64,000 nt of DNA from Ignavibacteria bacterium RIFCSPLOWO2_12_FULL_56_21 (GTDB taxonomy: Bacteria; Bacteroidota; Ignavibacteria; UBA10030), in NCBI GenBank assembly GCA_001802945.1, contig MHAK01000018.1:10941-74940 (forward strand). The letters are read 5' to 3'. This document shows positions 7,092 to 33,172 of the stretch, piece after piece. How positions within the stretch are numbered: position 1 is the stretch's first letter; each line of letters opens with the position of its first letter. Below the pieces are notes generated by a model. It was not told the DNA's origin, ran no database searches, and worked only from the letters and a program-made list of their open reading frames with translations. Position numbers and translations under genes: made by a program.

Positions 7092-8813
7092 TCACTCGTG
7101 TGAGGCTACCATGCCCGTCCCGGAACGGCCATCCACTTTGAGCGTAAGTGGGTTGGGAAGGGTAATGTGTCGCGTGAACTTCCTGTCATTGACGATTCGC
7201 TGGCTTTGAAGCCACTGCCAATCGATGCTGTCGGACCCTCCGGATCGTATGCAGAAATAGCTCACATGAAAGCTCGTCAGATTATGGAAGAAATGCGATC
7301 CCTGGCTAAAATCGATGTTCAGGTCTGGAATGGACGCCTCGACGATTGCTTGTGCCCCGGAGATCTGACCCCATGCGACAGGAATTCCGAGAAATGGGTC
7401 GGCGCTGCCCCATCGTCCGAACCCGATCAGAATGTACGGCCTGTGGGAGGATGTCAGCACATTGTTGAGGTCGGCCAATTCGTCTGCAATCGCACGTGTC
7501 GAGGTGGTGGCAAACATCTCGGGCTTTACATACACAATATCGGAGATCGTATCGACGATGCCATTGCCCAGCACTGTGCCGGATCGAATGCGAGTCCGAT
7601 CCGATCGAAGATCGGCCTCGGTCAGCGTGACTTCTGCCTGTGAAACGACCATGGGACGTGCCTGGAGAAATCCGAAGCGTGGCGGGTCGAAGGTCATCGC
7701 AAATTCGGCCTCGAGCGGCGCTCCCACGGACTCTGCACACACTGCCAGAATGTTCCGAACGAGTTGATTCACCGGCAACTCACGGCTGGCCAGCAACATT
7801 GAAAAATCGAGGACGCGAATGCCGACGCGACTCGTGCCGGGTGTGCGGCTGTCTGACGCTGGGTCATACGTCGAAGCTATATACTGCAGCCGGCCGTCCT
7901 CTTCGGCGTCCTGCAGCGTTCCTTCGACCAGATATTCCCGCTCGTTAATGGGGTCGTAAGCGGGCGGTTTCCCCATGTTTACCGCCCAAAATGTCGACTG
8001 CGTACTTTTGACCAGTTCGACCGATGAACGATATGGTGGAGCTATCGTTGGATAGGCGGGGGAGTATGTCCAACACTTGCCGCCATCCACAATCGTTTTC
8101 CCGAGTCCGAGCGCGAGACTGACAACTCCATCTTCGGGACGTGCGCGGCCCATCGCGTAAAAATTGTAGGAGCGCGCGACACCGGATACGTTGGGATAGA
8201 ACCTGTCGCCAACCGGACTTCCCACAACTTCCTGGAGAATGACTGCCATTTTCTCATCTTCCGTTCGATGACTGGTTGCGCGGACATAATCCCTCGCCGA
8301 ACGAAAGAATGTCGACGCATACACGAACTTGACCGCCTCGGAAAGTCGCCGAAACCGTTCGTCCACACTCGGCTGGTTGTTCGGGATCATTTTTGTTTCA
8401 TACACGCCGGCGAACGGTTCGCTGAGTGCATCTTCAAGCAGGCTCGAAGATCGCACTGCAAGGGGCGTATGCACCTGCTCAACCAGCGCCCGCAGGTCCC
8501 CCAGGATTTCGGCGGGAAGGGCTGCTTTCTGAAAAGCGTACGCCTTATATGAGTCGTCCTCGTCCGCATAAGCAATCTTGTGAAGCTCATTCCGCGTCAG
8601 GAACGCGTCGAAGACATCGGTACGGATGACCGTCAGGCTGGGAATGGAAACGTCGATCCCCGGGAACGATGTATTGTCCCATGACATCGCAAGAATGTCC
8701 TGGATGACCGCCAGTCCGTGCGCCTTTCCACCCAACGATCCGGTTCCGATGACCTTGAACCTCTGCGACGGGTCAAAGAAGGTCCGGTCGAACGGAGCAA
8801 GCAGGCTTTCCAA
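7092..8813 (-). CDS. PEP-synthase/PPDK N-terminal ATP-grasp (PPDK_N-like) domain protein, paralog of the downstream gene
   Basis: 573 aa. GGKAHGL and VRSSSLLED..FAGVYET motifs. Shares a C-terminal block (ILIGFGRWGS...SxGSHFF) with the 1064-aa neighbour. 14-nt gap to the next gene on the same strand. Confidence 0.65.
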   Translation of the reverse strand: MESLLAPFDRTFFDPSQRFKVIGTGSLGGKAHGLAVIQDILAMSWDNTSFPGIDVSIPSLTVIRTDVFDAFLTRNELHKIAYADEDDSYKAYAFQKAALPAEILGDLRALVEQVHTPLAVRSSSLLEDALSEPFAGVYETKMIPNNQPSVDERFRRLSEAVKFVYASTFFRSARDYVRATSHRTEDEKMAVILQEVVGSPVGDRFYPNVSGVARSYNFYAMGRARPEDGVVSLALGLGKTIVDGGKCWTYSPAYPTIAPPYRSSVELVKSTQSTFWAVNMGKPPAYDPINEREYLVEGTLQDAEEDGRLQYIASTYDPASDSRTPGTSRVGIRVLDFSMLLASRELPVNQLVRNILAVCAESVGAPLEAEFAMTFDPPRFGFLQARPMVVSQAEVTLTEADLRSDRTRIRSGTVLGNGIVDTISDIVYVKPEMFATTSTRAIADELADLNNVLTSSHRPYILIGFGRWGSADPFLGIPVAWGQISGAQAIVEASIPDLNIDFSQGSHFFHNLTSFHVSYFCIRSGGSDSIDWQWLQSQRIVNDRKFTRHITLPNPLTLKVDGRSGTGMVASHE

Positions 8814-8896
8814 ATCTTTTTCTGAGGCGTTCTTCAGAGGTCAACTCCCAATGTCGTCGAGTATGAAGCCGTCCTCCATCCACCTCACTACCCATC

Positions 8897-10183
8897 TCAC
8901 ACCCAACCGCGATCCTTACATGCCTGTGCGACCCGGCTGATAGAGATAACGTAAGCGGCCTCACGCATGGTCAATTTTCGCTTGTTCGCAGTTTCCCGCA
9001 CGGCGTGATATGCAGAGGTCATGGTTGTGTCGAGCTTTCCGAATACTTCATCCTTGTTCCAGTAGTAGTTCATGTTGCTTTGCACCTGCTCAAAATAGCT
9101 GCATGTCACTCCGCCGGCGTTTGCGAGGAAATCTGGAATGACAAACATGTTTCTTGCACACAATGCGACGTCGGCTTCGGATGTCGTAGGTCCGTTCGCC
9201 GCTTCGGCGATGAGCTTGACGCCTTTGCCGATTCTGCCAACATTGTCTCTGGTGATCTGGTTCTCGAGCGCGGCAGGAATAAGCATGTCGACGTCTTGTT
9301 CAATCCAAGCGTCTTCTTGTAATACCTCATACCCGAGGTCTTGCGCCTTGCCGCGGTCAATTCCTCCGAACGGATCGGTGATTGTGCGGAGTTCTTCCAC
9401 GCTGACCCCGGATTTCTTGCGGAATGAGAAAGCGCATTTGGCTCCCTGGTCCCAACTGGAAACGCACACCACGGTTCCGCCGATCTGCTGCAAAAGCTCC
9501 ACTGCATACTGTGCAACATTCCCGAATCCCTGAACGCTCGCCGTGACGCCCTGCGGTTTCAGCTTCAAATCTTTCAGTGCCTCGCGCACAGTGAAAATAA
9601 CGCCGTACCCGGTCGCTTCTTTTCTGCCTTGCGATCCGCCTATGCTGAGAGGTTTTCCGGTGATGAAGCCGGGGTATTTGCCTCCATGGATCACTTCGTA
9701 TTCGTCCAGCATCCACAACATGTTCTGAGGATTTGTCATGACGTCTGGCGCAGGCACGTCGAGCACCGGACCTACGTTGCGGGAGACCTGTCGCACCCAG
9801 CCGCGACAGAGCTGCTCCACTTCACGCTGGCTCATATTGTGCGGGTCGCACACCACTCCGCCTTTGCTGCCCCCGAGTGGAATATCAACGACTGCGCATT
9901 TCCACGTCATCCAGACGGCAAGGGCGCGAACAGTGTCGATGGTCTCCATGGGATGGAATCGGATGCCCCCTTTTCCGGGTCCGCGCGCATCGTTATGCTG
10001 CACACGGAATCCGCGATAGATATGTACCGAGCCGTCATCCATTCGAACTGGAATGCTGAAATGGTATTCCCGCATGGGCCAACGGAGGAGATCTCGCGTC
10101 GCCTGACCAAGGTCTAACAGGTCGGCAACATGGTCGAATTGATGTTGAGCAGTTTCGAAAGGATTGTAACTCTGGGTGGACAT
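8897..10183 (-). CDS. gdhA: NAD(P)-specific glutamate dehydrogenase
   Basis: 428 aa. Glu/Leu/Phe/Val dehydrogenase signature region GGSKGGVVCDP with N-terminal dimerisation and C-terminal NAD(P)-binding domains. Confidence 0.9.
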   Translation of the reverse strand: MSTQSYNPFETAQHQFDHVADLLDLGQATRDLLRWPMREYHFSIPVRMDDGSVHIYRGFRVQHNDARGPGKGGIRFHPMETIDTVRALAVWMTWKCAVVDIPLGGSKGGVVCDPHNMSQREVEQLCRGWVRQVSRNVGPVLDVPAPDVMTNPQNMLWMLDEYEVIHGGKYPGFITGKPLSIGGSQGRKEATGYGVIFTVREALKDLKLKPQGVTASVQGFGNVAQYAVELLQQIGGTVVCVSSWDQGAKCAFSFRKKSGVSVEELRTITDPFGGIDRGKAQDLGYEVLQEDAWIEQDVDMLIPAALENQITRDNVGRIGKGVKLIAEAANGPTTSEADVALCARNMFVIPDFLANAGGVTCSYFEQVQSNMNYYWNKDEVFGKLDTTMTSAYHAVRETANKRKLTMREAAYVISISRVAQACKDRGWV

Positions 10184-23139: not shown

Positions 23140-24609
23140 TCAGATCCGCGCCAGGTCGCGCATCAGGGCCTCGTGAACTGGGCCTTCGGCTGCGAGATAG
23201 GACGCGAAACAGGAGGCGATCTCGTCGGCGTGACGCGCCGCCTTGGGGTCGCTACGAGAGGTGGTCCATGCGGAGAGATTCAGGAGTTGGCATGGTTCCA
23301 ACAGTTGAAGAAGATCCATCAGGTCGAGAGAGGCGGAATACTTCAAAAGCGCCGTGCGCGTATTCCTGAGGCGCGCAGCTATGCACGCGGATTGAGTCAT
23401 CTTGGAAATGAGCGACTGTGAAGAGACTGGAAAAGCATTGGAAGCAAGCACTTGGCCTTGTGCGGTCACATGCAATTCGTCCCCGTCGAAGAACGATGCT
23501 GCGTCATTACCCATTGGCGTTCCCGGGAACAACATCAGTCGGAACACATTGATCGCCCGAAATCCCAGGTCAAGCACGTCTTTCAGTGTGCGTTCAAATC
23601 CTTCTGGTGAATCTCCAGGGAGTCCCACGATCACGTCCGCAGGAATGTCGGGAAATTCGCGGAGAAGAAGTCCGATGGCGGCGCGGTGCCGGTGCGTAGC
23701 CTGGCGGCCGATTCGCCGAAGGCATGCGGGATTCGTGGATTCAATGCCGATCGAAATCATCTCTATTCCGGCATCTCTGGCGAGGGTGACATATTCTCGG
23801 TCCACATGTGTGAGGTCAGGGTATGCCTTGATGCTCGTCTGCCGATTGACCCGTCCAAGGAGCGCGAAGATCTTTTTTGCCCGGTCACGTGTCCCCCCAA
23901 AATGCGCATCACAGATCCGGAGATGGCGCACGCCGTGCCGGCACAAAAAGGGAAGCTCCTGCTCTATCAGCGTGTCATCCAGAATCGTCATATTGCCGTC
24001 GGGATATTGACAATACGCGCATCGCGACCGACAACCTGCGACAGTCTCATAGGACACTTCTGAAACGGAACTGATGCATTGCATTACGTCGGTGTTCGCT
24101 TCGTGGAAGATTACTCCTCGCCCCGGTTCTGGGTCGGGGCGTACAGGCATATGGACGATCCGGTTGTCGGTCCTGAAACTGATGCAGTCGACGGCGTCGA
24201 ATGGTTTGTGGGATGCAATAGCTTCGAGTACGCGAACCAGGGGTCGTTCTCCCGCGCCACGGATGACAACATCAACGGCGTTGTGGTGCATCAAGATCTC
24301 TTCTGCGGCCGCCGTTGAATTTACCTGTGGACCGCCGAGCAGAACTCGTGCTTTTGGCAAGAGAAGTTTTACTGTGGAGGCCGCATCGAGGAATGCAGGA
24401 AGGGACCAGTAGTGGCAGGAAAAACCGACTGCATCCGGCGTCCAAGTGCCAATTGCCTGCACCAGAAGGTCGTTGGCGGGGATTCCTGCCGTCGGAATGT
24501 CAAGGGCACGTACACTGATCGGAAAAGCACACCGGCTGTGCAGAGCCTCCTTGAGGTACCACTCTGCCAGCGAGAATCCTTGCCATGAGTGCACAAACAA
24601 GAATTTCAT
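23140..24609 (-). CDS. B12-binding (class B) radical SAM protein
   Basis: 489 aa. N-terminal cobalamin-binding-like domain, then CRSRCAYC (CxxxCxxC) radical-SAM motif. Last gene of the six-gene minus-strand operon. Confidence 0.75.
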   Translation of the reverse strand: MKFLFVHSWQGFSLAEWYLKEALHSRCAFPISVRALDIPTAGIPANDLLVQAIGTWTPDAVGFSCHYWSLPAFLDAASTVKLLLPKARVLLGGPQVNSTAAAEEILMHHNAVDVVIRGAGERPLVRVLEAIASHKPFDAVDCISFRTDNRIVHMPVRPDPEPGRGVIFHEANTDVMQCISSVSEVSYETVAGCRSRCAYCQYPDGNMTILDDTLIEQELPFLCRHGVRHLRICDAHFGGTRDRAKKIFALLGRVNRQTSIKAYPDLTHVDREYVTLARDAGIEMISIGIESTNPACLRRIGRQATHRHRAAIGLLLREFPDIPADVIVGLPGDSPEGFERTLKDVLDLGFRAINVFRLMLFPGTPMGNDAASFFDGDELHVTAQGQVLASNAFPVSSQSLISKMTQSACIAARLRNTRTALLKYSASLDLMDLLQLLEPCQLLNLSAWTTSRSDPKAARHADEIASCFASYLAAEGPVHEALMRDLARI

Positions 24610-24636
24610 TTCAGTGATATTGCTTGGGCAGGATTT

Positions 24637-24987
24637 CTACCAGCTGACAATGTAGTAGTTGTAGTAGTAGTTGTAGTAGTTGTTGTATGCGTGATAATAG
24701 TTGCTGTAGCTGCTGTAACTGCCATAGCTGCCGTAGCTGGAATAATTTCCATAGCTTGTATAACTGCTGTAGTTACTATAGCTCGTGTAGCTGCTATAGC
24801 TGGCGTAGCTGTTGTACTTTTCCGGTTCGAACGGATTATCACATCCGGGAATCAGTTGGGCCCCGAGCGAACCGGCGAGCGCGGCAAATGCAATCCTCCG
24901 AAGTGCCTCCCGGCGTTTCATCGAGGGGGCAGAAGGTGCAGCGGGCAATTCGGTCCCGTCGTCAGGTTCGGTATGTTCAGTGGTCAT
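24637..24987 (-). CDS. Ser/Asn/Tyr-rich (X-X-Y)n repeat peptide with Tat/lipobox-like leader; candidate RiPP precursor
   Basis: 116 aa. Strong SD AAGGAG 6 nt upstream of the ATG; start overlaps the upstream GT stop (ATGA). Leader MKRREALRRIAFAALAGSLGAQLIPGC. Core NSYASYSSYTSYSNYSSYTSYGNYSSYGSYGSYSSYSNYYHAYNNYYNYYYNYYIVSW has perfect 3-residue periodicity. Confidence 0.55.
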   Translation of the reverse strand: MTTEHTEPDDGTELPAAPSAPSMKRREALRRIAFAALAGSLGAQLIPGCDNPFEPEKYNSYASYSSYTSYSNYSSYTSYGNYSSYGSYGSYSSYSNYYHAYNNYYNYYYNYYIVSW

Positions 24988-25856
24988 GATCCGCTCCTTT
25001 GCAAGAGGTTTTCTATGGCGCTAGTGAGTTGAGCCGGGAGAATGGTGTTCAAGCAATGACGCGCTTCCATTGGACAAGGCAGGAAGTAGTGGTCGGGATG
25101 CTTGGGGCCGAGGCAATGCTCCCGTTCCTGGCAATATTCTCGTGAACCCTTGAGGTGAATTTGCTCTGGATATCCATACACGTGTGGGTCCGTCGGGCCC
25201 CACACAACGACGGCCGGCACTCCCACGAGATGTGCAACGTGCACAAAGAAATTGTCCACCGTCACAATGGCACTGCATCGACAGGCAAGCCCGATGGCTT
25301 GGGCCGGTGAAGTGACACCAAGCAGGGAATACGCTCCCTTGATATGGGTATCTTGGTGTTGGCCGAGTTGCAGTACAAAGAGCCCCTCTTTTCGCAGCAA
25401 CTGTACCAGATCAATCCAGACGTGCAACGGCATCATTTTCCTTGGTGCATCGGATGAAGGAGCGATCAGCACAACGCAACTCCGATTCCAGGGAATCATG
25501 TTTTCCAATGATCCGGCAGCGGCAAATCCGCCGGGGAAGTACAATCGTTCTTCAACCGGCGTGGGAAGTCCGAACATTCGTGCAAGAATCTGAAAGGCCC
25601 TCCGGTCCCCGGATCCCAATTCTTCCCTGCTCCAATAATCCGTCCGGACGATTGTCGCGTCGGGTGGTGGGAAACCAATTTCCTCTATTGCCGGGTGCCC
25701 CGCAAGAATGCCCTGGTACCTCGTCCGTCGTACCAAACGGAAACGGCGTGACGGCTGATGCTCGATCACCTGCTTAAGCACGCCGGAAAGCATGAGACTG
25801 TCCCCCAAGCCTCCTATGGGATTGATCCATTCACTTTGTCCGGGCATGTCAGGCAT
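24984..25856 (-). CDS. Glycosyltransferase family 9 (heptosyltransferase-like)
   Basis: 290 aa. N-terminal GGLGDSLMLSGVLKQV motif and overall GT-B RfaF/RfaC-like pattern; 8-nt overlap with the upstream rSAM gene. Confidence 0.6.
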   Translation of the reverse strand: MPDMPGQSEWINPIGGLGDSLMLSGVLKQVIEHQPSRRFRLVRRTRYQGILAGHPAIEEIGFPPPDATIVRTDYWSREELGSGDRRAFQILARMFGLPTPVEERLYFPGGFAAAGSLENMIPWNRSCVVLIAPSSDAPRKMMPLHVWIDLVQLLRKEGLFVLQLGQHQDTHIKGAYSLLGVTSPAQAIGLACRCSAIVTVDNFFVHVAHLVGVPAVVVWGPTDPHVYGYPEQIHLKGSREYCQEREHCLGPKHPDHYFLPCPMEARHCLNTILPAQLTSAIENLLQRSGS

Positions 25857-26985
25857 GGGTGTTTTCCGACAAGGAACCTACGGGTGCAGGGAAGTCCGCG
25901 TGTAGTCCAGTGACTGGTTCGATATATCGTTCGATAAGCCTTTTTGTGGCGGCGCAATTCGGGGACTTATGCATATACGTTCCGTAGTGTTGCTTCGATT
26001 CCAATGGGCAGCCGCCATGGCAGATTCCCCACAGCCGGCACTCCCGGCACTCGGTTTCAGGAAGCAGCGATTGACGCTGTAAAAATGCGTCGCGCCGGGC
26101 ATCATGAAGAATAGATTCCAAGGTGCAGTCCTGGATCCGGCCGTATGATTCCATGTTGTAATCACCCGCTTTTCCGCATTGCGACGTGTGGCCCTCCGGA
26201 CCGATGTATACCCATTCATATGTGCAGGAACCCGAGGACTCGCAGACCAATCCTACGTTGCGATCCCGGAGACTCCGGATAATTCCTTCAAACGGTTTTA
26301 CGTGAGGGAATCGGACTCGATGTTTCCACCACACGGGGAAAATAGCGCCCAGAAAGTCGGCGAATTCCTCCGGAGTAATTGCCAGCTCGTGTTCGTCCGA
26401 ACCATACACCCAAACCATGTTGAAGTTTGGCTGCGATCGTAAATTCATGTTCGTCAGGTGATAGAACAGCTCCAGCGGTATGGCAAGAGATTTCCGGTGA
26501 ACAACATAGATAACTCCCCAGTAGATATTGTTTTCTTCGAGCAATTCCACTGACCGCATGAACGCGCGGTTGTAGGCGTCGGAATCCCGGTTCTTGCCGA
26601 ATCCCCGCAATCCGGGAATCGGCTCATAACTGGAGCCAATCTGACGAATCCCGAGCTGTCGGAACACTTCGATCAATTCCTGAGTCAACAGCGTCAAGTT
26701 CGATTGTACGAGGTGTTCGATTCTGTCTTGTGTTTGGGGACAATGCTTTTTTTGGTGTTCAAGCGCAAGTCTGAAATACTCCGGTCCGAGCAAGCATACT
26801 TCGCCGCCATGCCAGGTCAGGGTCATCGTTTCCCGGGGATGGGCGCAGAGGTATTCATTGATTCGCTGGAAGACTAGCTCGAGCAGAGAAGACGAAAGAA
26901 TCGTGTTTTGACGCTTCTTGATCACGTCGCAATAAATACAGTTGGAATTGCACCGCTCGACGGCCTTGAATATAATTACCGGCAT
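25849..26985 (-). CDS. Radical SAM / SPASM-domain protein (anSME-like peptide-modifying enzyme)
   Basis: 378 aa. CNSNCIYC (CxxxCxxC) at residues 12-19; C-terminal Cys cluster CGKAG...CRECRLWGICHGGC typical of SPASM auxiliary Fe-S domains. Confidence 0.8.
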   Translation of the reverse strand: MPVIIFKAVERCNSNCIYCDVIKKRQNTILSSSLLELVFQRINEYLCAHPRETMTLTWHGGEVCLLGPEYFRLALEHQKKHCPQTQDRIEHLVQSNLTLLTQELIEVFRQLGIRQIGSSYEPIPGLRGFGKNRDSDAYNRAFMRSVELLEENNIYWGVIYVVHRKSLAIPLELFYHLTNMNLRSQPNFNMVWVYGSDEHELAITPEEFADFLGAIFPVWWKHRVRFPHVKPFEGIIRSLRDRNVGLVCESSGSCTYEWVYIGPEGHTSQCGKAGDYNMESYGRIQDCTLESILHDARRDAFLQRQSLLPETECRECRLWGICHGGCPLESKQHYGTYMHKSPNCAATKRLIERYIEPVTGLHADFPAPVGSLSENTHA

Positions 26986-27836
26986 TCGTCCATCCTCCCG
27001 TCGTCGCGTTTACGGCGATAGAAGTCGGCCGCGTCCAAGAGGTCCGAAAAGAATTCCGAACATCCGGTCGTTGGGGGGACTGCATCTGCGTACTTGCCCA
27101 GACAAACTCTCCATCCCGGGCAGGACGCACACGAGCTCATCTCGAGAAATCTCTTCCGCCATGCGTACTGTGATTTCCGGAATGCAGGCGACGCCGTGAT
27201 CGTTTCCAGCGCCCCGAGACCCTTCGCTAGAATTCGACCGCTTTGCAGATCCTCTTGGGTCAACGCGATCTCTTCCCGGTTGTTCACATGGAGGTATTGA
27301 CCCGGTGCATTGAAATACGCAGCATCGAAATCGGTCATCTTCTCGGGATGGTAATGAGTCACGACGTAGTTAAACGGCTCGATGGGAGCGTGCGGGGCCT
27401 TGCAGTAGACAGCATAATGCATCAGGTCGTTCAGTTCCTGCCAGCGGTCAAACGAAGCATCAACGATCAGTCCGCAGGAAATTCCCAGTGAAGAGAGAAT
27501 GTGCAGGTCGACGAAGGCGCTTGGGAGGTGAGCCGGAATGAATATGCGCAGGGGAAGACGCCGGAGCAACGGCATGCGAGGCGAGAGGCCCTTTACCGAT
27601 GCGATCCCGGCGCAGCGGATGACAAGTGTCACACCTGCCCAGCGACTTTCGATTGGAATATCGTCCAGCGGTTGGTCAGAATCCAACCACACAGCGTGCA
27701 ATGCGTTGGTGCCGTTGGTCCGGACAGCCAAAGAAGCTATCGCTGCCGGATCACGAGTACGAATCACGAGTGCCTGGCCACGCATTCGGGTAAGGAGCAC
27801 CGGTTCGTCGGGACACACAATGATTGGCTCGTTCAC
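26976..27836 (-). CDS. Hypothetical protein with C-terminal SPASM-like Cys cluster but no CxxxCxxC motif
   Basis: 286 aa. SSCASCPGWRVCLGKY...TGCSEFF cysteine cluster near the C-terminus; no radical-SAM core motif. Translationally coupled between two rSAM genes. Confidence 0.5.
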   Translation of the reverse strand: MNEPIIVCPDEPVLLTRMRGQALVIRTRDPAAIASLAVRTNGTNALHAVWLDSDQPLDDIPIESRWAGVTLVIRCAGIASVKGLSPRMPLLRRLPLRIFIPAHLPSAFVDLHILSSLGISCGLIVDASFDRWQELNDLMHYAVYCKAPHAPIEPFNYVVTHYHPEKMTDFDAAYFNAPGQYLHVNNREEIALTQEDLQSGRILAKGLGALETITASPAFRKSQYAWRKRFLEMSSCASCPGWRVCLGKYADAVPPTTGCSEFFSDLLDAADFYRRKRDDGRMDECR

Positions 27837-28834
27837 CCGTATACCTCTGTAATACGGACGGGGGCTTCGGTATGAAACCGGTCAACAAGATGAGCAATGC
27901 ATCCGCCTTCGCAAAGTCCGCTTTCCCGATGCCGACACGTATCGCATTCCAAGCGCACCCCCCCGGATTCCTGCCGGACCAGTTTGTGCAATCTCTCATA
28001 GAATTGCCGGATATCCTGGAGCGAATTGAAATCATACAGAGACCTTCTCCGAAAACCGGAGAGAGGAAAACATGACCATACCGTCATATCGGGGCCGATG
28101 TCAATGGCCGGTCCGCAATTGAAATGCAAGTTGCCCTGACTGATCCGATACAGTATGCCCAGCTGCTCGTCGGAAAACAGGCACAAGGGCATTCCACAAT
28201 CAAACCCTATCGTAATATGAAACTGATCCAGGTTTGGGACAAACTGCATCAACCGCTGGGCCATGTGTTTGAGTTCATGGGAAGCCAGACAGCGATTGTG
28301 TTCGCCCGGAATCGGATGTGCAAGTCCGATCCGCAGGTGGCGTCGCGTGCCATACCGGTTGATGTAATCGAAGAGCACAGCGAGGTCGAAATCAGGGCGA
28401 TAGATATTGTATCCGAGCGAAGAGTGATGGCCGAACAATTCGAGGAATCGTTCTAACCGTTCGGTCTCTTTGTCGGAGGAGATGTCAGGCTGATTGACAT
28501 TGACAACAAAGGACAACTGATCCGGTGCAACATCCCGCAGATGTTTCCATGCATCGTCGAGGACAGGGGTCGACATGATGCCGCTCGTGAAGACCGAAAC
28601 ATGGAATTGACGGGCGATCAGGTATGCGACAAAATCGACGAAGTGTGGATTAAGGGTGGGTTCACCGCCGAGGAGCGAAATGTGTCGCTCATGCGATGAT
28701 TCAAGGAAGTCGATAACGTACAGGAAGTTTTCCCACGTCAGGCTTCCGTCCGGGGAAGGGTCGTTCATCTGCTCTCGCGCAAAACAGTATGGACAGGATC
28801 GAACGCATTTCCGTGTGAGGAGGAGGTTCGCCAT
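27833..28834 (-). CDS. Radical SAM / SPASM-domain protein
   Basis: CVRSCPYC (CxxxCxxC) near the N-terminus and C-terminal CDTCRHRESGLCEGGC SPASM motif. Start set at MANLLL (ATG 28834) because a consensus promoter lies inside the longer ORF-track extension. Confidence 0.78.
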   Translation of the reverse strand: MANLLLTRKCVRSCPYCFAREQMNDPSPDGSLTWENFLYVIDFLESSHERHISLLGGEPTLNPHFVDFVAYLIARQFHVSVFTSGIMSTPVLDDAWKHLRDVAPDQLSFVVNVNQPDISSDKETERLERFLELFGHHSSLGYNIYRPDFDLAVLFDYINRYGTRRHLRIGLAHPIPGEHNRCLASHELKHMAQRLMQFVPNLDQFHITIGFDCGMPLCLFSDEQLGILYRISQGNLHFNCGPAIDIGPDMTVWSCFPLSGFRRRSLYDFNSLQDIRQFYERLHKLVRQESGGVRLECDTCRHRESGLCEGGCIAHLVDRFHTEAPVRITEVYG

Positions 28835-28853
28835 AACGTGAGCAGCTTGACCG

Positions 28854-28882
28854 AATATATCTTTCCCACCTCTGAGTGTCAA
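28854..28882 (-). promoter_or_regulatory. Sigma-70-type promoter (TTGACA-17-TATATT) for the rSAM/peptide operon
   Basis: On the minus strand, TTGACA (plus coordinates 28877-28882), a 17-nt spacer, and TATATT (28854-28859), about 20 nt upstream of the MANLLL start codon. Confidence 0.55.
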
Positions 28883-28925: not shown

Positions 28926-30896
28926 TCAGCTTTCTGTTTTCTTCAACTTCTCAATGAATTCGGATTCGATACTTTGAATGTGCTTTCCAAGATTTTCCCA
29001 TTCCTGCAAAAGCATAGTAAGCCGCAGTTTGCCCTTTTTGACCTCCTTTCCAGTTCTTTTCAGCTCATCGGACCGCTTGTAGGCATCGGGCTCGATCATT
29101 GCCCGTTCGAGCGCGCGGATTTCCCGTTCCAACTTGTCGATCTCCCGTTCCTTCTCTCGCAACTCTGTCATGAGCGGATGAAGTAGTCGACTCTTCTCCT
29201 GTCGCAGACCGGCCAAACGCCGCCGTTCATATTTGTCCGGACGGACGGCCTCGCTTGCGGACGCGGCTTTTCCCGACCATGCCTTCGCTTGTTCCTTCCT
29301 CCGCATTTCAACATACTCCGACACGGTCGAAAAAAACGTTCTCACACCCGAGGCTGAGACCTCAAGCACCGTATTGACGATCGGGTCAAGAAACCCGCGA
29401 TCATGGGAAACAATCACAAAGGACCCCGTATACGCCAGGAGTGCTTCCTGCAATATCGCTTTCGACCTGATGTCGAGGTGATTGGTCGGTTCGTCGAGAA
29501 GAAGTAAGTTGGAGGGACGGAGTAGCATGCGTGCCAAGGCGAGTCGGCTCTTTTCCCCGCCGGAGAGGACCTTAACCTTCTTGAAAACATCGTCGCCGTG
29601 GAACAAGAAGGAGCCCAGGATGGATCTGAGCTTTTTCCTGATCTCACCCTGGGCGACATCGTCCACGATCTCAAGGACTTCCTGGTTGGGATCCAGGTCG
29701 TCAGCCTGGTGCTGGGCGAAATACGAGAGCGTAAGATTATAGCCAGGGATTCTGTCGCCGGACTCAAAGGGTTCGATACCGGCCATGATGCGCAAAAGCG
29801 TTGATTTTCCCGCTCCGTTGACGCCGACGACGGCGATCCGGTCGCCGTTTCCCACTGTAAGAGAAATGCCGCGGAAGACTTCAGCCGAGCCGTACGACTT
29901 GACGATCTCCTTCAGCGACATCACTACCTTGCCCGACGACGGTGGTTCGGGGAAACTGAATGCGATCTCCTCCTGCCCCTCAACATCCTCGATCCTCTCC
30001 AATCTGTCGAGCTGCTTTATCCGGCTTTGCACTTGACGGGCTTTTGACGCCTTGTACCGGAATCGTTCGATGAAGCGTTCAGTATCCCGGATGCGATCCT
30101 GCTGTTTCTTCCGTTCCCGGCCGAGTTGTTCGTTGCGCTCGTCCAGCATGCTCACATACGAGGAATAATTGCCGCGATGATCATCCAAAGTACGCCGGCT
30201 CAAGCCAAGAGTACGAACGGTGGCGCGGTCAAGGAACACCGTATCGTGGGAAACGACGATGACAGCGCCGTCATAGGAAGCAAGATAGTCTTCCAGCCAT
30301 GCGAGGGACTCAATGTCCAGGTGATTCGTCGGCTCATCGAGGAGCAACACGGATGGTGTTTGTAAGAGCAGCTTTGCGAGCGCGATCCGCATCTGCCAGC
30401 CGCCGCTGAACTCCTCGGACTTGCGTGACAGGTCATTCACCGTAAATCCCAGGCCCATGAGCACTTTCTCGATCCTCGATCGCATGCGATATGCATCGAG
30501 GTCTTCGAGACGGTGCTGCAGTTCGCCAATCACTTCAAGGAGCTCGGCATGTTGATCCGAATCCGGCGCAATGGAATTCAGCGAGTTCACGCCTTCATCG
30601 AGTCGGGTCTGCAGGGAAATGAGATCTTCAAAAGCGGTCGCCGCTTCGTCGTACAGCGTCCTCCCTCGAAGTGCGATGTTTTCCTGCGGCAAATAGCCGA
30701 TCGTGACATAATGAGCGCTGGAGATCGATCCTTCGTCGGCCGGGAGTTCACCGGCAAGGACCCGCAGCAACGTGGTTTTGCCGCTGCCATTCGCTCCCAC
30801 AAGTCCAATTCGATCGTGAGGACGGATGAGAAACGAGACGTGCTCGAACAATGCCTGCCCGCCGACATGAACGGCGAGGTTGGAAACGGAAACCAT
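28926..30896 (-). CDS. ABC-F family ATPase (Uup-like, tandem ABC domains with C-terminal coiled coil)
   Basis: Two Walker A motifs (GANGSGKTTLL, GVNGAGKSTLL), ABC-F signature FSGGWQMR, and a charged coiled-coil C-terminus. Start set at MVSVSNL (30896); the 150-aa ORF-track N-terminal extension has no similarity. Confidence 0.8.
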   Translation of the reverse strand: MVSVSNLAVHVGGQALFEHVSFLIRPHDRIGLVGANGSGKTTLLRVLAGELPADEGSISSAHYVTIGYLPQENIALRGRTLYDEAATAFEDLISLQTRLDEGVNSLNSIAPDSDQHAELLEVIGELQHRLEDLDAYRMRSRIEKVLMGLGFTVNDLSRKSEEFSGGWQMRIALAKLLLQTPSVLLLDEPTNHLDIESLAWLEDYLASYDGAVIVVSHDTVFLDRATVRTLGLSRRTLDDHRGNYSSYVSMLDERNEQLGRERKKQQDRIRDTERFIERFRYKASKARQVQSRIKQLDRLERIEDVEGQEEIAFSFPEPPSSGKVVMSLKEIVKSYGSAEVFRGISLTVGNGDRIAVVGVNGAGKSTLLRIMAGIEPFESGDRIPGYNLTLSYFAQHQADDLDPNQEVLEIVDDVAQGEIRKKLRSILGSFLFHGDDVFKKVKVLSGGEKSRLALARMLLRPSNLLLLDEPTNHLDIRSKAILQEALLAYTGSFVIVSHDRGFLDPIVNTVLEVSASGVRTFFSTVSEYVEMRRKEQAKAWSGKAASASEAVRPDKYERRRLAGLRQEKSRLLHPLMTELREKEREIDKLEREIRALERAMIEPDAYKRSDELKRTGKEVKKGKLRLTMLLQEWENLGKHIQSIESEFIEKLKKTES

Positions 30897-30974
30897 GGAA
30901 GTACGAAGTAACCCGGGAAATGTGAGCAATAAAACTACTGTGGTCTTGGTCCAGATGCAACGCTTTCCTTTCGG

Positions 30975-31331
30975 ATGATTTTTTCGGTTCTTCCAAGCGA
31001 ACTGGACCTCACGATGATCCTCATTCTCTGGCGGTTCACTGCGAAATCGGATTCCGTCGACACTTTTGCTCAAATGTACGACAGCTCCGGCCCGTGGGTT
31101 GACATTTTCCGTCGTTACCATGGTTATCTTGGTACGGAGCTCCACCGATCGGTCGACGATGTGCGGGTGTTCATGACGATCGACAGATGGGAAGACAGAT
31201 GGTCGTATGAGACGTTTCTGGCAAACCATGACCCCGAGTATACGGCGCTCGACAAACGATGCCAGGAGCTGACGGAATCCGAAGATTTTGTCGGGCTCTA
31301 TGAAAATGTAACCGCCGTACCGGGCGAATGA
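30975..31331 (+). CDS. Small ABM-like (antibiotic biosynthesis monooxygenase / dimeric alpha+beta barrel) protein
   Basis: About 105-118 aa with ferredoxin-like ABM pattern (…LILWRF…FAQMY…FMTIDRWEDRWSYETF); weak assignment. Confidence 0.4.
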   Translation: MIFSVLPSELDLTMILILWRFTAKSDSVDTFAQMYDSSGPWVDIFRRYHGYLGTELHRSVDDVRVFMTIDRWEDRWSYETFLANHDPEYTALDKRCQELTESEDFVGLYENVTAVPGE

Positions 31332-33172
31332 AGTTGGCCGATTCACACTCTTACTTTGAGGAAGCCATGCGTAGCCGTCTCTTACTTACAGGATTGATAC
31401 TGATCATCGCCACAGGCGTGGACGCCCAGAACACATCCCGTTCCGGACGGACAGTCGCGGAGGCCAAGGTCTTTGTCGATTCCGCGGAACAACGATTACG
31501 AGAATTGTGGGTCCGATCGTCGCGGGCTTCATGGGTGCAGAACAATTTCATCACCGACGACACAGAAGCACTTGCAGCGGATGCACAGAAGGACGTGACT
31601 GCGGCAAGCGTCGCGTTCGCAAAAGGAGCGGCGCGATTCGACGGTGTGAAGTTACCGTATGAGATCGAACGCAAATTGAAGCTCCTGAAACTGTCGCTGA
31701 CGCTTCCCGCGCCTTCCAACGACAACGATCAACAAGAAGTGACGCAGATCGCCGTCTCTCTTGAAAGCGACTATGGCAAGGGAAAATTCTCAACTCAGAA
31801 CGGGACAGTATATACTCTGAACGATGCGTCGCGTGTCATGGCGACCAGCAGAAACTACGACACGTTGCTCCTGATGTGGAAGGGATGGCATGAAGTCGCA
31901 CGTCCAATGCGTGAACGATATACCCGTCTCGCAAAGTTGACGAACAAGGGGGCGAAAGAGCTTGGGTTCGCCGACGTCGGATCGCTCTGGCGGTCGAACT
32001 ACGATATGCCTCCCGGCGAGTTTGCGAAGGAGATCGACCGATTGTGGCTGCAAGTGAAGCCGCTGTACGACGCTCTCCATGCCTATGTTCGGACCGCACT
32101 CGCGAAAGAATATGGAAAAGGGAAGGTGGAGCGGGGGGGACGAATTCCCGCACACCTCCTGGGAAATATGTGGGCTCAGAGCTGGCTGAATATCTATCCC
32201 CTCGTGGCTCCCCCGTCTGGCGATCCGGGATACGATCTGACAAAGATTCTCCAGGAGAGAAAAGCGACGGAAGAGGACCTCGTCCATATCGGGGAAAGAT
32301 TCTTTGTCTCGATCGGTTTTGACCCGCTGCCTGCTTCGTTTTGGACACGGTCGCTCTTTCGAAAGCCGCAGGATCGGGAGGTCATATGTCATGCGTCCGC
32401 CTGGAGCATTGACTTCCACGACGACTTGCGGATCAAGATGTGCATTGAAGTGAACGATGAGGATTTTCAGACGATCCACCACGAATTGGGGCACAACTTT
32501 TACCAGCGTGCGTACAACGGCCAGCCGTTGTTGTTCCAGGGGAGCGCTAACGACGGGTTCCATGAGGCACTTGGCGACGCGGTTGCGCTGTCGCTGAGCC
32601 CGGAATACCTGCAGCAGCTCGGCATGATCTCGACGGTGCCGGATGCTTCGGGGGACCTCGGCTTGCTGATGAAGATGGCACTGGATAAGGTCGCATTCCT
32701 CCCGTTCGGGCTTGTCGTCGATCAGTGGCGATGGAAAGTATTTTCGGGCGAGATCAGTCCCAACGAGTACAACTCGTCCTGGTGGTCGTTGCGGGAAAAA
32801 TATCAGGGGGTTCAAGCGCCGGTAGAGCGAACGGAGAAAGATTTCGACCCCGGAGCGAAATTCCACGTTGCGGGAAGCGTTCCATACACCCGGTATTTTA
32901 TTTCGACGATCCTTCAGTTCCAGTTCCACAGGGCTTTGGCCAGAGAGATGGGGCACACCGGACCGATTCACAGGGCGTCGATCTACAACAACAAGCGGGC
33001 GGGAGAAAAACTCAAAGCAATGATGGCTATGGGACAAAGCCGTCCATGGCAGGAGGCTTTGGAGGCACTAACCGGAGAGAAACAGATGGACGCAAGCGCC
33101 ATTGTCGATTATTTCGCGCCCCTGAAACGTTGGCTGGATGAGCAGAACAAAGGACAGAAGGTGGGATATTGA
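31328..33172 (+). CDS. Peptidase M2 family (angiotensin-converting-enzyme-like dipeptidyl carboxypeptidase)
   Basis: N-terminal signal peptide, zinc motif HHELGHNFYQ and downstream EALGDAVALS, as in ACE/XcACE. Confidence 0.75.
   Translation: MKLADSHSYFEEAMRSRLLLTGLILIIATGVDAQNTSRSGRTVAEAKVFVDSAEQRLRELWVRSSRASWVQNNFITDDTEALAADAQKDVTAASVAFAKGAARFDGVKLPYEIERKLKLLKLSLTLPAPSNDNDQQEVTQIAVSLESDYGKGKFSTQNGTVYTLNDASRVMATSRNYDTLLLMWKGWHEVARPMRERYTRLAKLTNKGAKELGFADVGSLWRSNYDMPPGEFAKEIDRLWLQVKPLYDALHAYVRTALAKEYGKGKVERGGRIPAHLLGNMWAQSWLNIYPLVAPPSGDPGYDLTKILQERKATEEDLVHIGERFFVSIGFDPLPASFWTRSLFRKPQDREVICHASAWSIDFHDDLRIKMCIEVNDEDFQTIHHELGHNFYQRAYNGQPLLFQGSANDGFHEALGDAVALSLSPEYLQQLGMISTVPDASGDLGLLMKMALDKVAFLPFGLVVDQWRWKVFSGEISPNEYNSSWWSLREKYQGVQAPVERTEKDFDPGAKFHVAGSVPYTRYFISTILQFQFHRALAREMGHTGPIHRASIYNNKRAGEKLKAMMAMGQSRPWQEALEALTGEKQMDASAIVDYFAPLKRWLDEQNKGQKVGY

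Follow-up and report, generated by a model that had tools for sequence, protein, structure and literature searches.

In the 64,000-nucleotide stretch of DNA analysed here (the window), a minus-strand gene encodes what we consider likely to be the precursor of an exported, Tyr-rich repeat protein family, which would carry a twin-arginine (Tat)-type signal, be modified in the cytoplasm, and then be exported through Tat and anchored to lipid. The gene itself is real and conserved. It belongs to an undescribed, widespread family encoded beside a conserved core consisting of a radical SAM (rSAM) enzyme, a degenerate rSAM-fold protein (pseudo-rSAM), a SPASM-type rSAM enzyme and a GT9 glycosyltransferase, and this core contains no dedicated exporter or protease.

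The precursor gene and its family

The precursor gene and its parts are as follows:
24637-24987, minus strand: precursor gene, 116 aa, with a Tat-like lipoprotein-type signal and a Tyr-rich Y-x-S/N repeat core
24994-24999, minus strand: Shine-Dalgarno-like AAGGAG, contained in the codons CAA-AGG-AGC at the 3' end of GT9
24916-24987, minus strand: N-region of the signal, hydrophilic and acidic, MTTEHTEPDDGTELPAAPSAPSMK, aa 1-24
24889-24915, minus strand: twin-arginine motif RREALRRIA, aa 25-33; family consensus x-R-R-[DE]-A-L-K-R-[IM]-A
24844-24894, minus strand: h-region IAFAALAGSLGAQLIPG, uncharged and moderately hydrophobic, aa 32-48
24841-24855, minus strand: lipobox-like L-I-P-G-C, aa 45-49, with Cys49 as the proposed lipidated +1 residue
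24700-24816, minus strand: 13 consecutive Y-x-(S/N) triplets, aa 58-96, proposed modification sites
24640-24699, minus strand: C-terminal tail YYHAYNNYYNYYYNYYIVSW, aa 97-116, conserved within the clade of the window

The open reading frame (ORF) and its translation match the preliminary description exactly. The protein reads MTTEHTEPDDGTELPAAPSAPS-MKRREALRRIAFAALAGSLGAQLIPGC-DNPFEPEK-(YxS/N)x13-YYHAYNNYYNYYYNYYIVSW, and its layout comprises, in order, a 24-aa hydrophilic N-region, RREALRRIA, a 17-aa uncharged stretch, LIPG-C, the 13 triplets and a Tyr-rich tail. Both translation signals described earlier are real: AAGGAG lies 6 nt 5' of the ATG at 24987, separated from it by the spacer cggatc, and the GT9 stop codon TGA (24986-24984) shares bases with this ATG in an ATGA overlap. 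Of 34 other long ORFs in the window, only 3 are preceded by an SD-like 5-mer, and the internal Met23 has no SD-like sequence before it. Public gene callers predicted exactly this 116-aa protein in 37 blocks of the collection. At the DNA level, an imperfect period-9/18 array was detected at 24698-24816 (TRF).

A total of 68 distinct homologues were collected, the majority of them through a search with a neighbouring enzyme rather than with the peptide. The peptide-first search gave 19 homologues, and the enzyme-first search, using the 286-aa neighbour as query, returned 96 loci with about 48 distinct Tyr-repeat ORFs beside the enzymes. These ORFs occur in Bacteroidota, Nitrospirota, Spirochaetota, Acidobacteriota, Desulfobacterota-type lineages, Phycisphaerae and others, and the marker protein itself is represented by 258 sequence clusters (50%-identity representatives) at E<=1e-30. 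As the earlier reading would require, every informative locus keeps the minus-strand ORF beside the enzyme set, and both the N-terminal motif and the (Y-x-x)n core are conserved. The precursors vary in length from 80 to 260 aa and in the copy number of their repeats, which are of the Y-x-S/N/D/G type; in one locus (L039), the precursors have a mixture of His and Tyr at the periodic position (SHRSHSSYESHKSY). Tails of the YYHAYNNYYNYYYNYYIVSW type are also found in L041, L042 and L044, the loci that carry a B12-rSAM gene. Neither the model searches nor the literature searches yielded a family model or paper for this precursor family, and literature queries on Tat-signal RiPPs, on twin-arginine combined with SPASM and on tyrosine-rich combined with radical SAM returned nothing relevant.

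Neighbouring enzymes

The genes flanking the precursor on the same strand are the following:
27833-28882, minus strand: rSAM1, the second radical SAM enzyme, whose gene opens the conserved core
26976-27836, minus strand: 286-aa degenerate radical-SAM/SPASM-fold protein, lacking CxxxCxxC and retaining the C-terminal C-x2-C-x5-C...C
25849-26985, minus strand: radical SAM/SPASM enzyme of an anSME/DarE-like group, present in 93 of 99 loci
24984-25856, minus strand: glycosyltransferase of the GT9 family (heptosyltransferase-like), in translational coupling with the precursor gene
23140-24609, minus strand: B12-binding radical SAM enzyme (Pfam B12-binding and Radical_SAM), 27 nt downstream of the precursor gene

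rSAM1 matches Pfam Radical_SAM with 55.5 bits, together with Fer4_12, and is found in 81 of the 99 loci, always directly upstream of the gene for the 286-aa protein. The best structural match of the latter is an rSAM enzyme crystallised with the leader of its substrate, and we propose that the 286-aa protein acts as a substrate-binding or auxiliary-cluster partner. The SPASM enzyme scores 128 bits with the NCBIfam model DarE, 127 bits with anSME and 81 bits with GrrM/OscB, all far under the respective cutoffs; its match in the PDB is anSME 4K36 (E 5e-15). The glycosyltransferase was assigned from Pfam Glyco_transf_9 (34.5 bits), with WaaF (1PSW) as top PDB match, and its gene is present in 61 of 99 loci, many of the others being cut by contig ends. 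The B12-rSAM enzyme is a clade-specific accessory found only in the window, L041, L042 and L044.

Direct reading of the sequences revealed no N-terminal signals on the cluster enzymes. RRE, PqqD, C39 peptidase and ABC-transporter domains are likewise absent from the conserved core, which agrees with the earlier statement that the leader is not a typical RiPP leader; it resembles a Tat signal and not a leader of the GG/RRE type. The upstream ABC-F gene (28926-31346) was considered as an exporter and rejected, being of the soluble translation-factor type, lacking a membrane domain and not conserved with the cluster. Assignment of the locus to the HXS, triceptide, darobactin or anSME families was also discarded, since the enzyme scores are all far below the family cutoffs. 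Similarly, PADLOC gave only generic rSAM matches (pVip, PDC-M51A) and no specific one, and thus does not point to a known defence system.

The twin-arginine box

The hydrophilic N-region preceding the twin arginine ranges from 3 to 40 aa among the homologues and contains five acidic residues (D/E) in the window. Because most homologues lack a Met near the RR, this N-terminal extension must be translated. Nearly all 68 homologues carry the consensus box followed by a hydrophobic stretch. Among the 46 enzyme-adjacent precursors, RR is present in 44, and the subsequent A, L, K, R and A positions are kept in 44, 41, 41, 45 and 43, respectively, while S or T precedes the RR in 27. Across the 59-68 homologous leaders, RR, A28, R31 and A33 vary little or not at all. 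Of the two RR pairs in the window, the first, R25R26, corresponds by homology to the invariant twin arginine; the second is due to replacement of K by R at position 30, next to the invariant R31.

When the window box K-R-R-E-A-L-R is set against the Tat motif S/T-R-R-x-F-L-K, the position of Phe is occupied by Ala, as in 44 of the 46 precursors, the remainder having Ser. In E. coli, the rate of export depends on hydrophobicity at this position. The RR is missing altogether from two members (L014 with CR, L030 with KK), both of which keep ALKR[IM]A; part of the conservation is therefore unexplained by Tat. The preliminary description had called the leader Tat-type rather than a typical RiPP leader. 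Its Tat-like character holds throughout the family, but the words "rather than" may be too exclusive in view of these two members. Conservation of the box beyond what Tat needs suggests an additional role, and RR[DE]ALKR[IM]A probably also serves as a recognition handle for the maturases.

The h-region and cleavage site

The 18 uncharged residues of aa 32-49 (Cys49 included) have a mean Kyte-Doolittle value of 1.53. This corresponds to a Tat-type h-region, that is, about 13-20 uncharged and moderately hydrophobic residues followed by a cleavage site, and similar stretches, rich in Gly, Ala and Thr and only moderately hydrophobic, are found throughout the family. A Cys follows the RR by 22-30 (mostly 23-25) residues in 44 of the 68 members, whereas the remaining 24 have an AxA-type site instead (SWA, AKA, AMA, AIA and ALA types). 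The near-fixed distance of the Cys from the RR and the conserved residues show that these features are more than chance.

In the 44 Cys-type members, position -1 is S, A or G in 40, position -3 is I or L in 22 and position -4 is F or L in 28. With L(-4), I(-3), P(-2), G(-1) and C(+1), the window shows the small residue at -1 ([AGS]) and the hydrophobic residues at -3/-4 that are expected of a lipobox. Pro at -2, however, lies outside the permitted residues ([LIVMFYSTAGCQ], or strictly [ASTVI]), so that the previously noted LIPGC is indeed lipobox-like but not canonical, failing both the PROSITE-like core and the strict pattern. Using simplified patterns in place of the exact TATFIND and LipoP rules, 25 of the 44 Cys-type members pass the PROSITE-PS51257-like core and 11 pass the strict [LVI][ASTVI][GAS]C. 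Cys49 is also located farther from Met1 than typical lipoprotein rules allow.

Tat-signal models and tat genes

The leaders were compared with Tat-signal models, for which the E. coli signals of TorA, SufI and HyaA served as controls. In leader-only scans of seven leaders, two exceeded the trusted cutoff of TIGR01409 TAT_signal_seq (16.7 bits) with 17.3 and 17.7 bits and two fell just below it (16.6 and 15.8 bits); the controls scored 18.0, 23.3 and 32.1 bits, respectively. Among 59 leaders, the three commonest NCBIfam matches at E<=0.1 were all Tat-signal models (TIGR01409 in 22, Iro in 15 and formate_TAT in 12). The leader of the window gave no TIGR01409 match in the leader-only scans, only 11.3 bits with formate_TAT in the seven-leader scan and nothing at E<=0.1 in the 59-leader scan. 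Scans of whole proteins are less sensitive, since the Tyr repeat suppresses weak N-terminal matches, and found TIGR01409 in only 2 of 19. Pfam TAT_signal (PF10518) matched no family leader; as a test it was uninformative, as it missed TorA and remained sub-threshold for SufI and HyaA.

The precursor gene has tatA and/or tatC as immediate neighbours, in the same orientation, in 11 distinct loci representing at least three clades, with scores of 52-62 bits for TatA and 158-218 bits for tatC; the preliminary description had not foreseen this evidence. No other transporter or protease recurs beside the precursor loci. The 64-kb window itself contains no tat genes, and among its ORFs no RR-type signal other than that of the precursor peptide. 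Judged from sequence, the Tat reading of the leader is supported because the box approximates S/T-RR-x-F-L-K, with Ala for Phe, Tat HMMs rank top for the leaders and tatA/tatC adjoin the precursor gene in the 11 loci. Those refuting conditions of the preliminary description that were examined all turned out in its favour.

Two other readings of the leader have to be weighed. The box might mainly be a RiPP-type leader for the rSAM machinery, the hydrophobic stretch being an uncleaved anchor or a recognition helix and the likeness to Tat secondary or coincidental. Such a reading would account for the conservation of the box well past Tat need (each of A, L, K, R and A in at least 41 of 46) and for its persistence in the two members without RR. 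Moreover, the rSAM enzymes have no RRE domain and thus need some other recognition element, and the degenerate rSAM-fold protein, with a leader-bound rSAM as top structural match, could be a dedicated leader binder. Yet a cleavage-type site ([SAG]-Cys or AxA) always closes the hydrophobic stretch, its spacing from the box is fixed, and enzyme recognition alone leaves the adjacency of tatA/tatC unexplained. Since both roles are compatible and the preferred Tat-type reading already includes a dual role of the box, we regard a leader function without Tat as rather unlikely.

Still less probable, in our judgement, is an ordinary Sec-type (lipo)protein signal, in which the arginines would only provide a positive n-region and export would proceed without Tat. 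The leader of the window does remain under the Tat HMM cutoff, the Phe of the Tat box is absent from every member, the generic lipoprotein-signal model lipo_YgdI_YgdR is matched by 4 of 19 members, and HxsA and bufferins have general or Sec-type signals. A Sec signal, however, needs no adjacent arginines, and these are found in 44 of 46 very divergent sequences within an S/T-RR-x-x-L-K frame. The tat genes beside the precursor gene are hard to explain for a Sec substrate, and the Tat-signal models among the top matches as well as the Gly/Ala/Thr-rich, only moderately hydrophobic h-regions likewise speak against it.

Proposed maturation and export

In the preferred Tat-type reading, the signal would consist of the variable hydrophilic n-region, the box RR[DE]ALKR[IM]A and an h-region of 13-20 residues rich in Gly, Ala and Thr. 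In the clade of the window, it would close with the lipobox-like [FL][IL]x[SAG]-Cys, corresponding to a site of the signal peptidase II/Lgt type, and in other clades with an AxA-type signal peptidase I site. The cytoplasmic enzymes, namely the two rSAM enzymes, the degenerate rSAM-fold partner, GT9 and, here, the B12-rSAM enzyme, would first modify the Y-x-(S/N) triplets. The likely chemistry would be H-abstraction at Cbeta of the third residue, leading to Tyr-to-Cbeta three-residue cyclophanes or to Ser oxidation, along with O-glycosylation of Ser. The bulky, possibly pre-folded product would then leave via the Tat translocase, the signal would be cleaved, and the mature protein would be lipid-anchored in the envelope at Cys49. 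The maturation machinery might bind the box and perhaps shield the signal until modification is finished, comparable to the Tat "proofreading" chaperones. The layout of the sequence, its conservation across the family, the synteny, the fold of the partner protein and the neighbouring tatA/tatC are observations, whereas Tat dependence, lipidation, the chemistry and this order of events are inferred.

A more far-reaching version is conceivable, although we consider it more doubtful than the scheme above. This could be the first recognised ribosomal family whose maturation leader is at once a Tat signal. The Tyr-x-Ser repeats would be cross-linked in the cytoplasm by the rSAM enzymes, with the pseudo-rSAM holding the signal, and heptosylated or glycosylated there; the fully modified protein, perhaps as a fibre, would be exported through Tat, in some lineages with the cluster-encoded TatA/TatC, and would form a lipid-anchored, cross-linked, Tyr-rich surface or periplasmic matrix.

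RiPP-like pathways almost always need dedicated leader peptides, proteases and ABC exporters. General secretion signals in such pathways have been recognised only recently, in the Sec-dependent bufferins and in HXS. If the precursors carry a Tat signal, heavily modified ribosomal peptides would be routed through a translocase built for folded or bulky cargo, providing a natural system for the coupling of post-translational modification with Tat "quality control". The loci also present a new, widely distributed rSAM/pseudo-rSAM/GT9 enzyme set and a new kind of tyrosine-rich low-complexity protein, presumably of the envelope. For genome mining, they suggest a rule of searching for the RR[DE]ALKR[IM]A box beside rSAM genes, as leader-centred RiPP tools would overlook these loci.

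Comparison with known systems

The closest analogues are the HXS system and the bufferins. In the HXS antiphage system (HxsA/B/C/D), a signal-peptide-bearing effector with H-x-S repeats is matured by two rSAM enzymes and exported to the periplasm (PMC13128918). Both systems thus share a small protein in which tandem X-x-Ser repeats are combined with a signal peptide at the N-terminus, as well as cytoplasmic maturation by two radical SAM enzymes and an accessory protein followed by action in the envelope, the latter steps being predicted for the present family. The His/Tyr mixture of L039 bridges both repeat types, and HxsA3 and HxsA4 are the only named NCBIfam models that touch the Tyr repeat (HxsA4 with 22 bits against 55). 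In contrast, the window enzymes reach only 43.6 of 370 bits for HxsB and 21.8 of 268 bits for HxsC. HxsD is missing, the 286-aa pseudo-rSAM is found instead and GT9 is present. The window repeats are Tyr-based, acidic or neutral instead of basic and far more numerous, and the protein has a Tat-like signal with a lipobox-like motif and no peptidoglycan-binding domain.

Bufferins are RiPPs with Sec signals; according to the paper on them, Sec handles bulky or macrocyclic peptides poorly (PMC11626156). Like the present precursors, they are unusually long, use a secretion signal as "leader", are modified in the cytoplasm (as would be the case here) and have no dedicated ABC exporter or protease. 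They differ in their Sec signals, MNIO enzymes and Cys-to-thiooxazole chemistry, compared with a Tat-like, often lipoprotein-type signal, rSAM enzymes and GT9, and in some clusters their own tatA/tatC, in the family described here.

The 3-CyFEs of triceptides (XncB, OscB/GrrM, MscB/FxsB, YxdB, YhhB, HaaB) cross-link aromatic-x-X motifs, for example Phe-C4 to Ser-Cbeta or Tyr-C3 to Asp-Cbeta (PMC11002830). Such a core is also present here, as Y-x-S and Y-x-N and, in relatives, Y-x-D, and in both cases a SPASM rSAM gene adjoins the precursor gene. However, the SPASM enzyme of the window scores far from these families (score/cutoff: GrrM 81/310, YhhB 78/445, FxsB 59/370, XyeB 42/450, AmcB 71/425) and is nearer to anSME and DarE. 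In place of a short leader, the precursors of 80-260 aa bear an export signal. GT9 and two more proteins of the rSAM fold are obligatory partners, and the chemistry is a prediction in the present case.

anSME modifies exported sulfatases ahead of export and is the closest relative of the window SPASM enzyme, which nevertheless reaches only 127 of the 349 bits of the model cutoff. A sulfatase and a C/S-x-P-x-R motif are lacking here, and the substrate would be the repeat protein. Tat lipoproteins are known from Streptomyces and haloarchaea, and signal-binding chaperones (REMPs) from E. coli. With the former, the precursor would share a twin-arginine box followed by a lipobox-type Cys. Similar to the TorD/DmsD-type chaperones, a cytoplasmic maturation factor likely binds the signal until the substrate is finished. 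Here, the cargo would be a cross-linked or glycosylated repeat protein instead of a cofactor enzyme, no TorD/DmsD-family protein is present and the Tat-box Phe is replaced by Ala. Unlike classical leader-dependent RiPPs, the conserved core offers neither a short leader recognised by RRE/PqqD nor a dedicated protease or exporter.

The antisense open reading frame

A plus-strand ORF (24589-25032) indeed exists opposite the precursor gene, as previously described; it has a GTG start and encodes 147 aa of poly-Val/Ile/Ala. We give virtually no credence to the view that this ORF is the true product, or that the region is non-coding repeat DNA, and the plus-strand ORF was rejected as a gene. In its favour, the precursor DNA is a tandem repeat and two antisense frames of the window are nearly fully open (117 codons without a stop and 113 with one). 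Across the homologous loci, however, the plus-strand ORF is not conserved. In the median homologue, the longest antisense run without a stop covers 0.64 of the gene length, and at least 0.8 is reached in only 11 of 47 homologues, whereas the sense frame is open in all, has a conserved non-repetitive N-terminal motif and a C-terminal tail, and possesses the SD sequence and ATGA coupling. The antisense ORF is a by-product of codon composition, because no reverse-complement stop can arise from the codons of Tyr (TAY), Ser (AGY), Asn (AAY) or Gly.

Operon Organization and the Precursor Gene

The precursor gene lies within a tightly packed minus-strand operon of enzyme genes, arranged in the window as follows.

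Features of the precursor operon (window coordinates)
27833-28882 (-), radical SAM enzyme rSAM1
26976-27836 (-), 286-aa protein without Pfam or NCBIfam match
25849-26985 (-), radical SAM/SPASM enzyme
24984-25856 (-), GT9 (heptosyltransferase-family) glycosyltransferase
24999-24994 (-), Shine-Dalgarno-like AAGGAG, six bases from the precursor ATG
24637-24987 (-), precursor ORF, 116-aa product, sequence MTTEHTEPDDGTELPAAPSAPSMKRREALRRIAFAALAGSLGAQLIPGCDNPFEPEKYNSYASYSSYTSYSNYSSYTSYGNYSSYGSYGSYSSYSNYYHAYNNYYNYYYNYYIVSW
aa 58-96 (-), Y-x-(S/N) core of 13 consecutive triplets, followed by a Tyr/Asn-rich tail
24589-25032 (+), antisense poly-Val/Ile/Ala ORF
23140-24609 (-), B12-binding radical SAM enzyme

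The preliminary description had reported this ORF, its AAGGAG site six nucleotides upstream, the ATGA overlap between its ATG and the stop codon (TGA) of the glycosyltransferase gene upstream, and the plus-strand ORF, and all of these are present in the window DNA. The AAGGAG is notable because SD-like 5-mers are rare ahead of the other long window ORFs (about 3 of 34), with the caveat that its AGG-AGC codons double as coding sequence for the GT9 C-terminus. No SD-like sequence precedes the internal Met23. The DNA of the core forms an imperfect period-9/18 array (TRF).

The SPASM enzyme scored highest with DarE (128 bits), anSME (127 bits) and GrrM/OscB (81 bits), none of which comes near its curated cutoff; among solved structures, anSME 4K36 is the closest (E 5e-15). 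No N-terminal signals were found in the cluster enzymes on direct reading of their sequences. The 286-aa protein is interpreted as a degenerate radical SAM paralogue, because it lacks the CxxxCxxC SAM-cluster motif and keeps four invariant C-terminal Cys residues (C-x2-C-x5-C...C). Since the radical SAM enzymes of the cluster begin directly with their cluster motifs and lack an RRE, this pseudo-enzyme would be the best candidate for binding the precursor or its leader. Upstream of the cluster, the ABC-F gene (28926-31346, minus strand) has a longest ORF of 806 aa from a GTG and is called publicly as 656 aa; translation probably does not include the first 150 residues.

Conservation of the Precursor

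In the public collection, gene callers predict the identical protein in 37 blocks. A peptide-first search returned 19 homologues of 104-162 aa, which share the N-terminal box, a hydrophobic stretch, an (S-Y-x)n core and a C-terminal tail. To avoid circularity, the neighbouring 286-aa protein was used as a second query. This yielded 33 clusters in a word-indexed database, 258 representatives among 1.84 billion at E<=1e-30, and 28 genome plus 68 metagenome loci (L-numbers below). The order rSAM1/286-aa protein/SPASM enzyme/GT9 is almost invariant, and about 48 additional, distinct ORFs with Tyr-rich repeats adjoin the enzyme set, upstream or downstream, in Bacteroidales, Nitrospirae, Spirochaetota, Acidobacteriota, Syntrophaceae, Thermodesulfobacteriota, Phycisphaerae, Kiritimatiellae and one Thorarchaeota MAG.

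The antisense frames, almost fully open in the window, are broken in most homologues: the longest stop-free antisense stretch has a median of 0.64 of the gene length and reaches at least 0.8 in only 11 of 47. On these grounds we reject the plus-strand ORF as a real gene. It is explained as a compositional by-product, because no Tyr (TAY), Ser (AGY), Asn (AAY) or Gly codon reads as a stop in the reverse complement. The minus-strand leader and repeat core are kept beside the enzymes, and on this comparative basis we regard the precursor as a real, conserved gene.

Leader Architecture

Among 46 non-redundant enzyme-adjacent precursors, the leader carries the motif x-R-R-[DE]-A-L-K-R-[IM]-A. The RR pair occurs in 44 of 46, preceded by S/T in 27; the following A, L, K and R are found in 44, 41, 41 and 45, respectively, and the final A in 43. 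The box appears to be the Tat consensus S/T-R-R-x-F-L-K with Ala replacing Phe. In the window (RREALRRIA) the invariant pair is R25R26; the second 'RR' arises where Arg replaces the Lys of position 30, next to the invariant R31. Ahead of the box lies a hydrophilic n-region of variable length (3-40 aa), which is evidently translated, since most homologues have no Met close to the RR. Behind the box come about 13-20 uncharged residues rich in Gly, Ala, Thr and Leu.

The end of the signal was compared in 68 members. A Cys lies 22-30 (mostly 23-25) residues past the RR in 44, with S/A/G at -1 in 40, I/L at -3 in 22 and F/L at -4 in 28 of these, while the other 24 lack the Cys and end in SWA, AKA, AMA, AIA or ALA. 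Such alternation of lipobox-type and AxA-type ends at one place would be expected for a cleavable export signal rather than a structural Cys. The family lipobox appears loose; the PROSITE-like core matched 25 of the 44 Cys-type members and the strict [LVI][ASTVI][GAS]C pattern 11. The window LIPGC matches neither owing to Pro at -2, which also occurs in FIPAC relatives. Of the Tat-lipoprotein leader proposed in the preliminary description, the RR and the uncharged stretch recur in almost the whole family and the Cys in 44 of 68 members; the lipobox of the window is non-canonical, and the Phe of the Tat box is Ala.

Acidic residues stand at +2 to +6 past the Cys in 29 of 44 members (CDNPFEPE, CEPYSDY, CEEPED, CTKPED; window 24841-24819). 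A negatively charged surface-export signal has been described for Bacteroidota lipoproteins; by this resemblance the product might be surface-exposed.

Leader-only sequences were also scanned with HMMs.

Scores of single leaders and of E. coli Tat-signal controls (TIGR01409 cutoff 16.7 bits)
L023, TIGR01409 17.3 bits
L032, TIGR01409 17.7 bits
L012, TIGR01409 16.6 bits
L037, TIGR01409 15.8 bits
Window, no TIGR01409 match; formate_TAT 11.3 bits
L009, lipoprotein-signal model only
L040, formate_TAT only, 14.9 bits
TorA control, TIGR01409 18.0 bits
SufI control, TIGR01409 23.3 bits
HyaA control, TIGR01409 32.1 bits

When 59 leaders were run against 18,950 NCBIfam models, the three models matched most often all describe Tat signals: TIGR01409 (22 leaders), the Iro HiPIP signal (15) and formate_TAT (12). 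Judged against the controls, the family leaders score like weak-to-typical Tat signals, with the window copy at the weak end. Pfam TAT_signal was uninformative, since it missed TorA.

Tat Genes Beside the Precursor

The genes tatA and/or tatC directly flank the precursor on the same strand in 11 distinct loci, which represent at least three clades; scores are 52 to 62 bits for TatA and 158 to 218 bits for TatC. In L034, a Spirochaetales MAG, a further radical SAM gene follows tatC on the same strand. The other ten are L095 and L028; L035 and L094; and L019 (= L052), L021, L038, L059 (= L060), L064 and L098.

Precursor-linked tat genes (locus coordinates)
L034 1660-1902, precursor, 22 nt before tatA
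L034 1924-2115, tatA, same strand, Pfam TatA_B_E 61 bits
L034 2057-2899, tatC, same strand, Pfam TatC 162 bits
L034 1924-2899, tat region
L095 1872-2763, tat region
L028 3498-4208, tat region
L035 5974-7010, tat region
L094 10239-11254, tat region
L019 7109-7327, tat region
L059 11019-11225, tat region

Because tat genes number no more than a few per genome, their repeated embedding beside the precursor gene is hard to explain unless the precursor is a Tat substrate. Apart from the Tat genes, no recurrent transporter or protease was found around the conserved core. Since the 64-kb window contains no tat gene, its precursor, if Tat-exported, would have to depend on the housekeeping Tat system.

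Proposed Maturation and Relation to Known Systems

The family combines a conserved exported-protein architecture with cytoplasm-type maturases, lacks a dedicated exporter or protease, and has Tat genes in cis in many relatives. Modification before export, with a signal of Tat/lipoprotein type in place of a classical RiPP leader, is the best-supported reading of these genes, considerably strengthened by the family comparison and the tatA/tatC linkage. Its weak points are that the Tat box has Ala for Phe, that the lipobox has Pro at -2 and that the window copy scores below the HMM threshold.

The Y-x-(S/N/D) triplets would be modified in the cytoplasm. anSME-type enzymes abstract Cβ-H at Ser. 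The enzymes known to form three-residue cyclophanes join an aromatic residue i to Cβ of i+2, with Phe-Ser and Tyr-Asp among the pairs (PMC11002830). By analogy, either chemistry would fit the triplets. The GT9 enzyme may glycosylate Ser residues, and the bulky product would then leave via Tat, in keeping with macrocyclic or bulky peptides being poor Sec substrates (PMC11626156, the bufferin paper). Cleavage and, in the window's clade, lipidation at Cys49 would follow export. ALKR[IM]A is kept even in the two RR-less members (L014 and L030), which suggests that the box is also what the maturation machinery recognises, much as Tat proofreading chaperones bind signal peptides.

As in HXS, bufferins and anSME-sulfatase pairs, a signal-peptide-bearing protein would here, to go by the genes, be matured in the cytoplasm, and the core resembles a triceptide substrate. 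The cluster falls outside the HXS, bufferin, anSME and triceptide families: its enzymes score far below the cutoffs, in contrast to HXS it lacks HxsD, and in contrast to classical RiPPs a short RRE-type leader. Neither Pfam nor NCBIfam holds a model for the precursor or the 286-aa protein, and literature searches found no description of Tat-signal radical SAM substrates of this kind. We would place the family among radical-SAM-matured exported repeat proteins, or signal-peptide RiPPs. The closest functional analogue, HXS, is an antiphage effector of the periplasm that bears H-x-S repeats and is matured by two radical SAM enzymes (PMC13128918); it may hint at the function of the mature protein. 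In two tandem precursors of L039 (5270-5587 and 5604-5954) the periodic residue is sometimes His and sometimes Tyr (e.g., SHRSHSSYESHKSYSSHKSY), which appears to link the Tyr-x-Ser family to His-Xaa-Ser-type repeats.

Variation Among Loci

The B12-binding radical SAM gene occurs only in the window, L041, L042 and L044, whose precursors all end in a related Tyr/Asn-rich ...NYY[IV]VSW/VVNW tail; this co-occurrence suggests an extra, tail-specific modification, possibly methylation. At its C-terminus the L023 precursor (8595-9350, 241 aa) is fused to Peptidase_S74 (59.5 bits), the 'chaperone of endosialidase' domain typical of trimeric fibres, tail fibres or spikes, and the related P0018 stops exactly where this domain would begin. 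This fusion may point to a product that assembles into fibres. L007 (8127-12156), L035 and L094 each carry, immediately downstream of the cluster, a gene for a very large secreted protein that contains an FGE-sulfatase (formylglycine-generating-enzyme-like) domain. The Bacteroidota 'YYNYYSYY' clade (L019, L021, L038, L059, L064, L098) has a recurrent LysM + SLT lytic-transglycosylase gene beside the cluster (e.g., L064, 3850-5616), which suggests a cell-wall connection. In L033, a Candidatus Thorarchaeota MAG (JBHLRA010000055.1), the cluster is complete and its precursor has the Tat box (HNRREALKKIA...); its presence on a contig assigned to an Asgard archaeon reflects either horizontal transfer or a binning artefact. 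In one clade (L024, L025, L026, L032, L079, L084, L090) a third radical SAM/SPASM gene lies between the SPASM enzyme and GT9, and the precursor repeats are of the (S/T)-(A/G)-Y type, with Cys residues in the tail (YYSQYCSG...YYYSYYCS).
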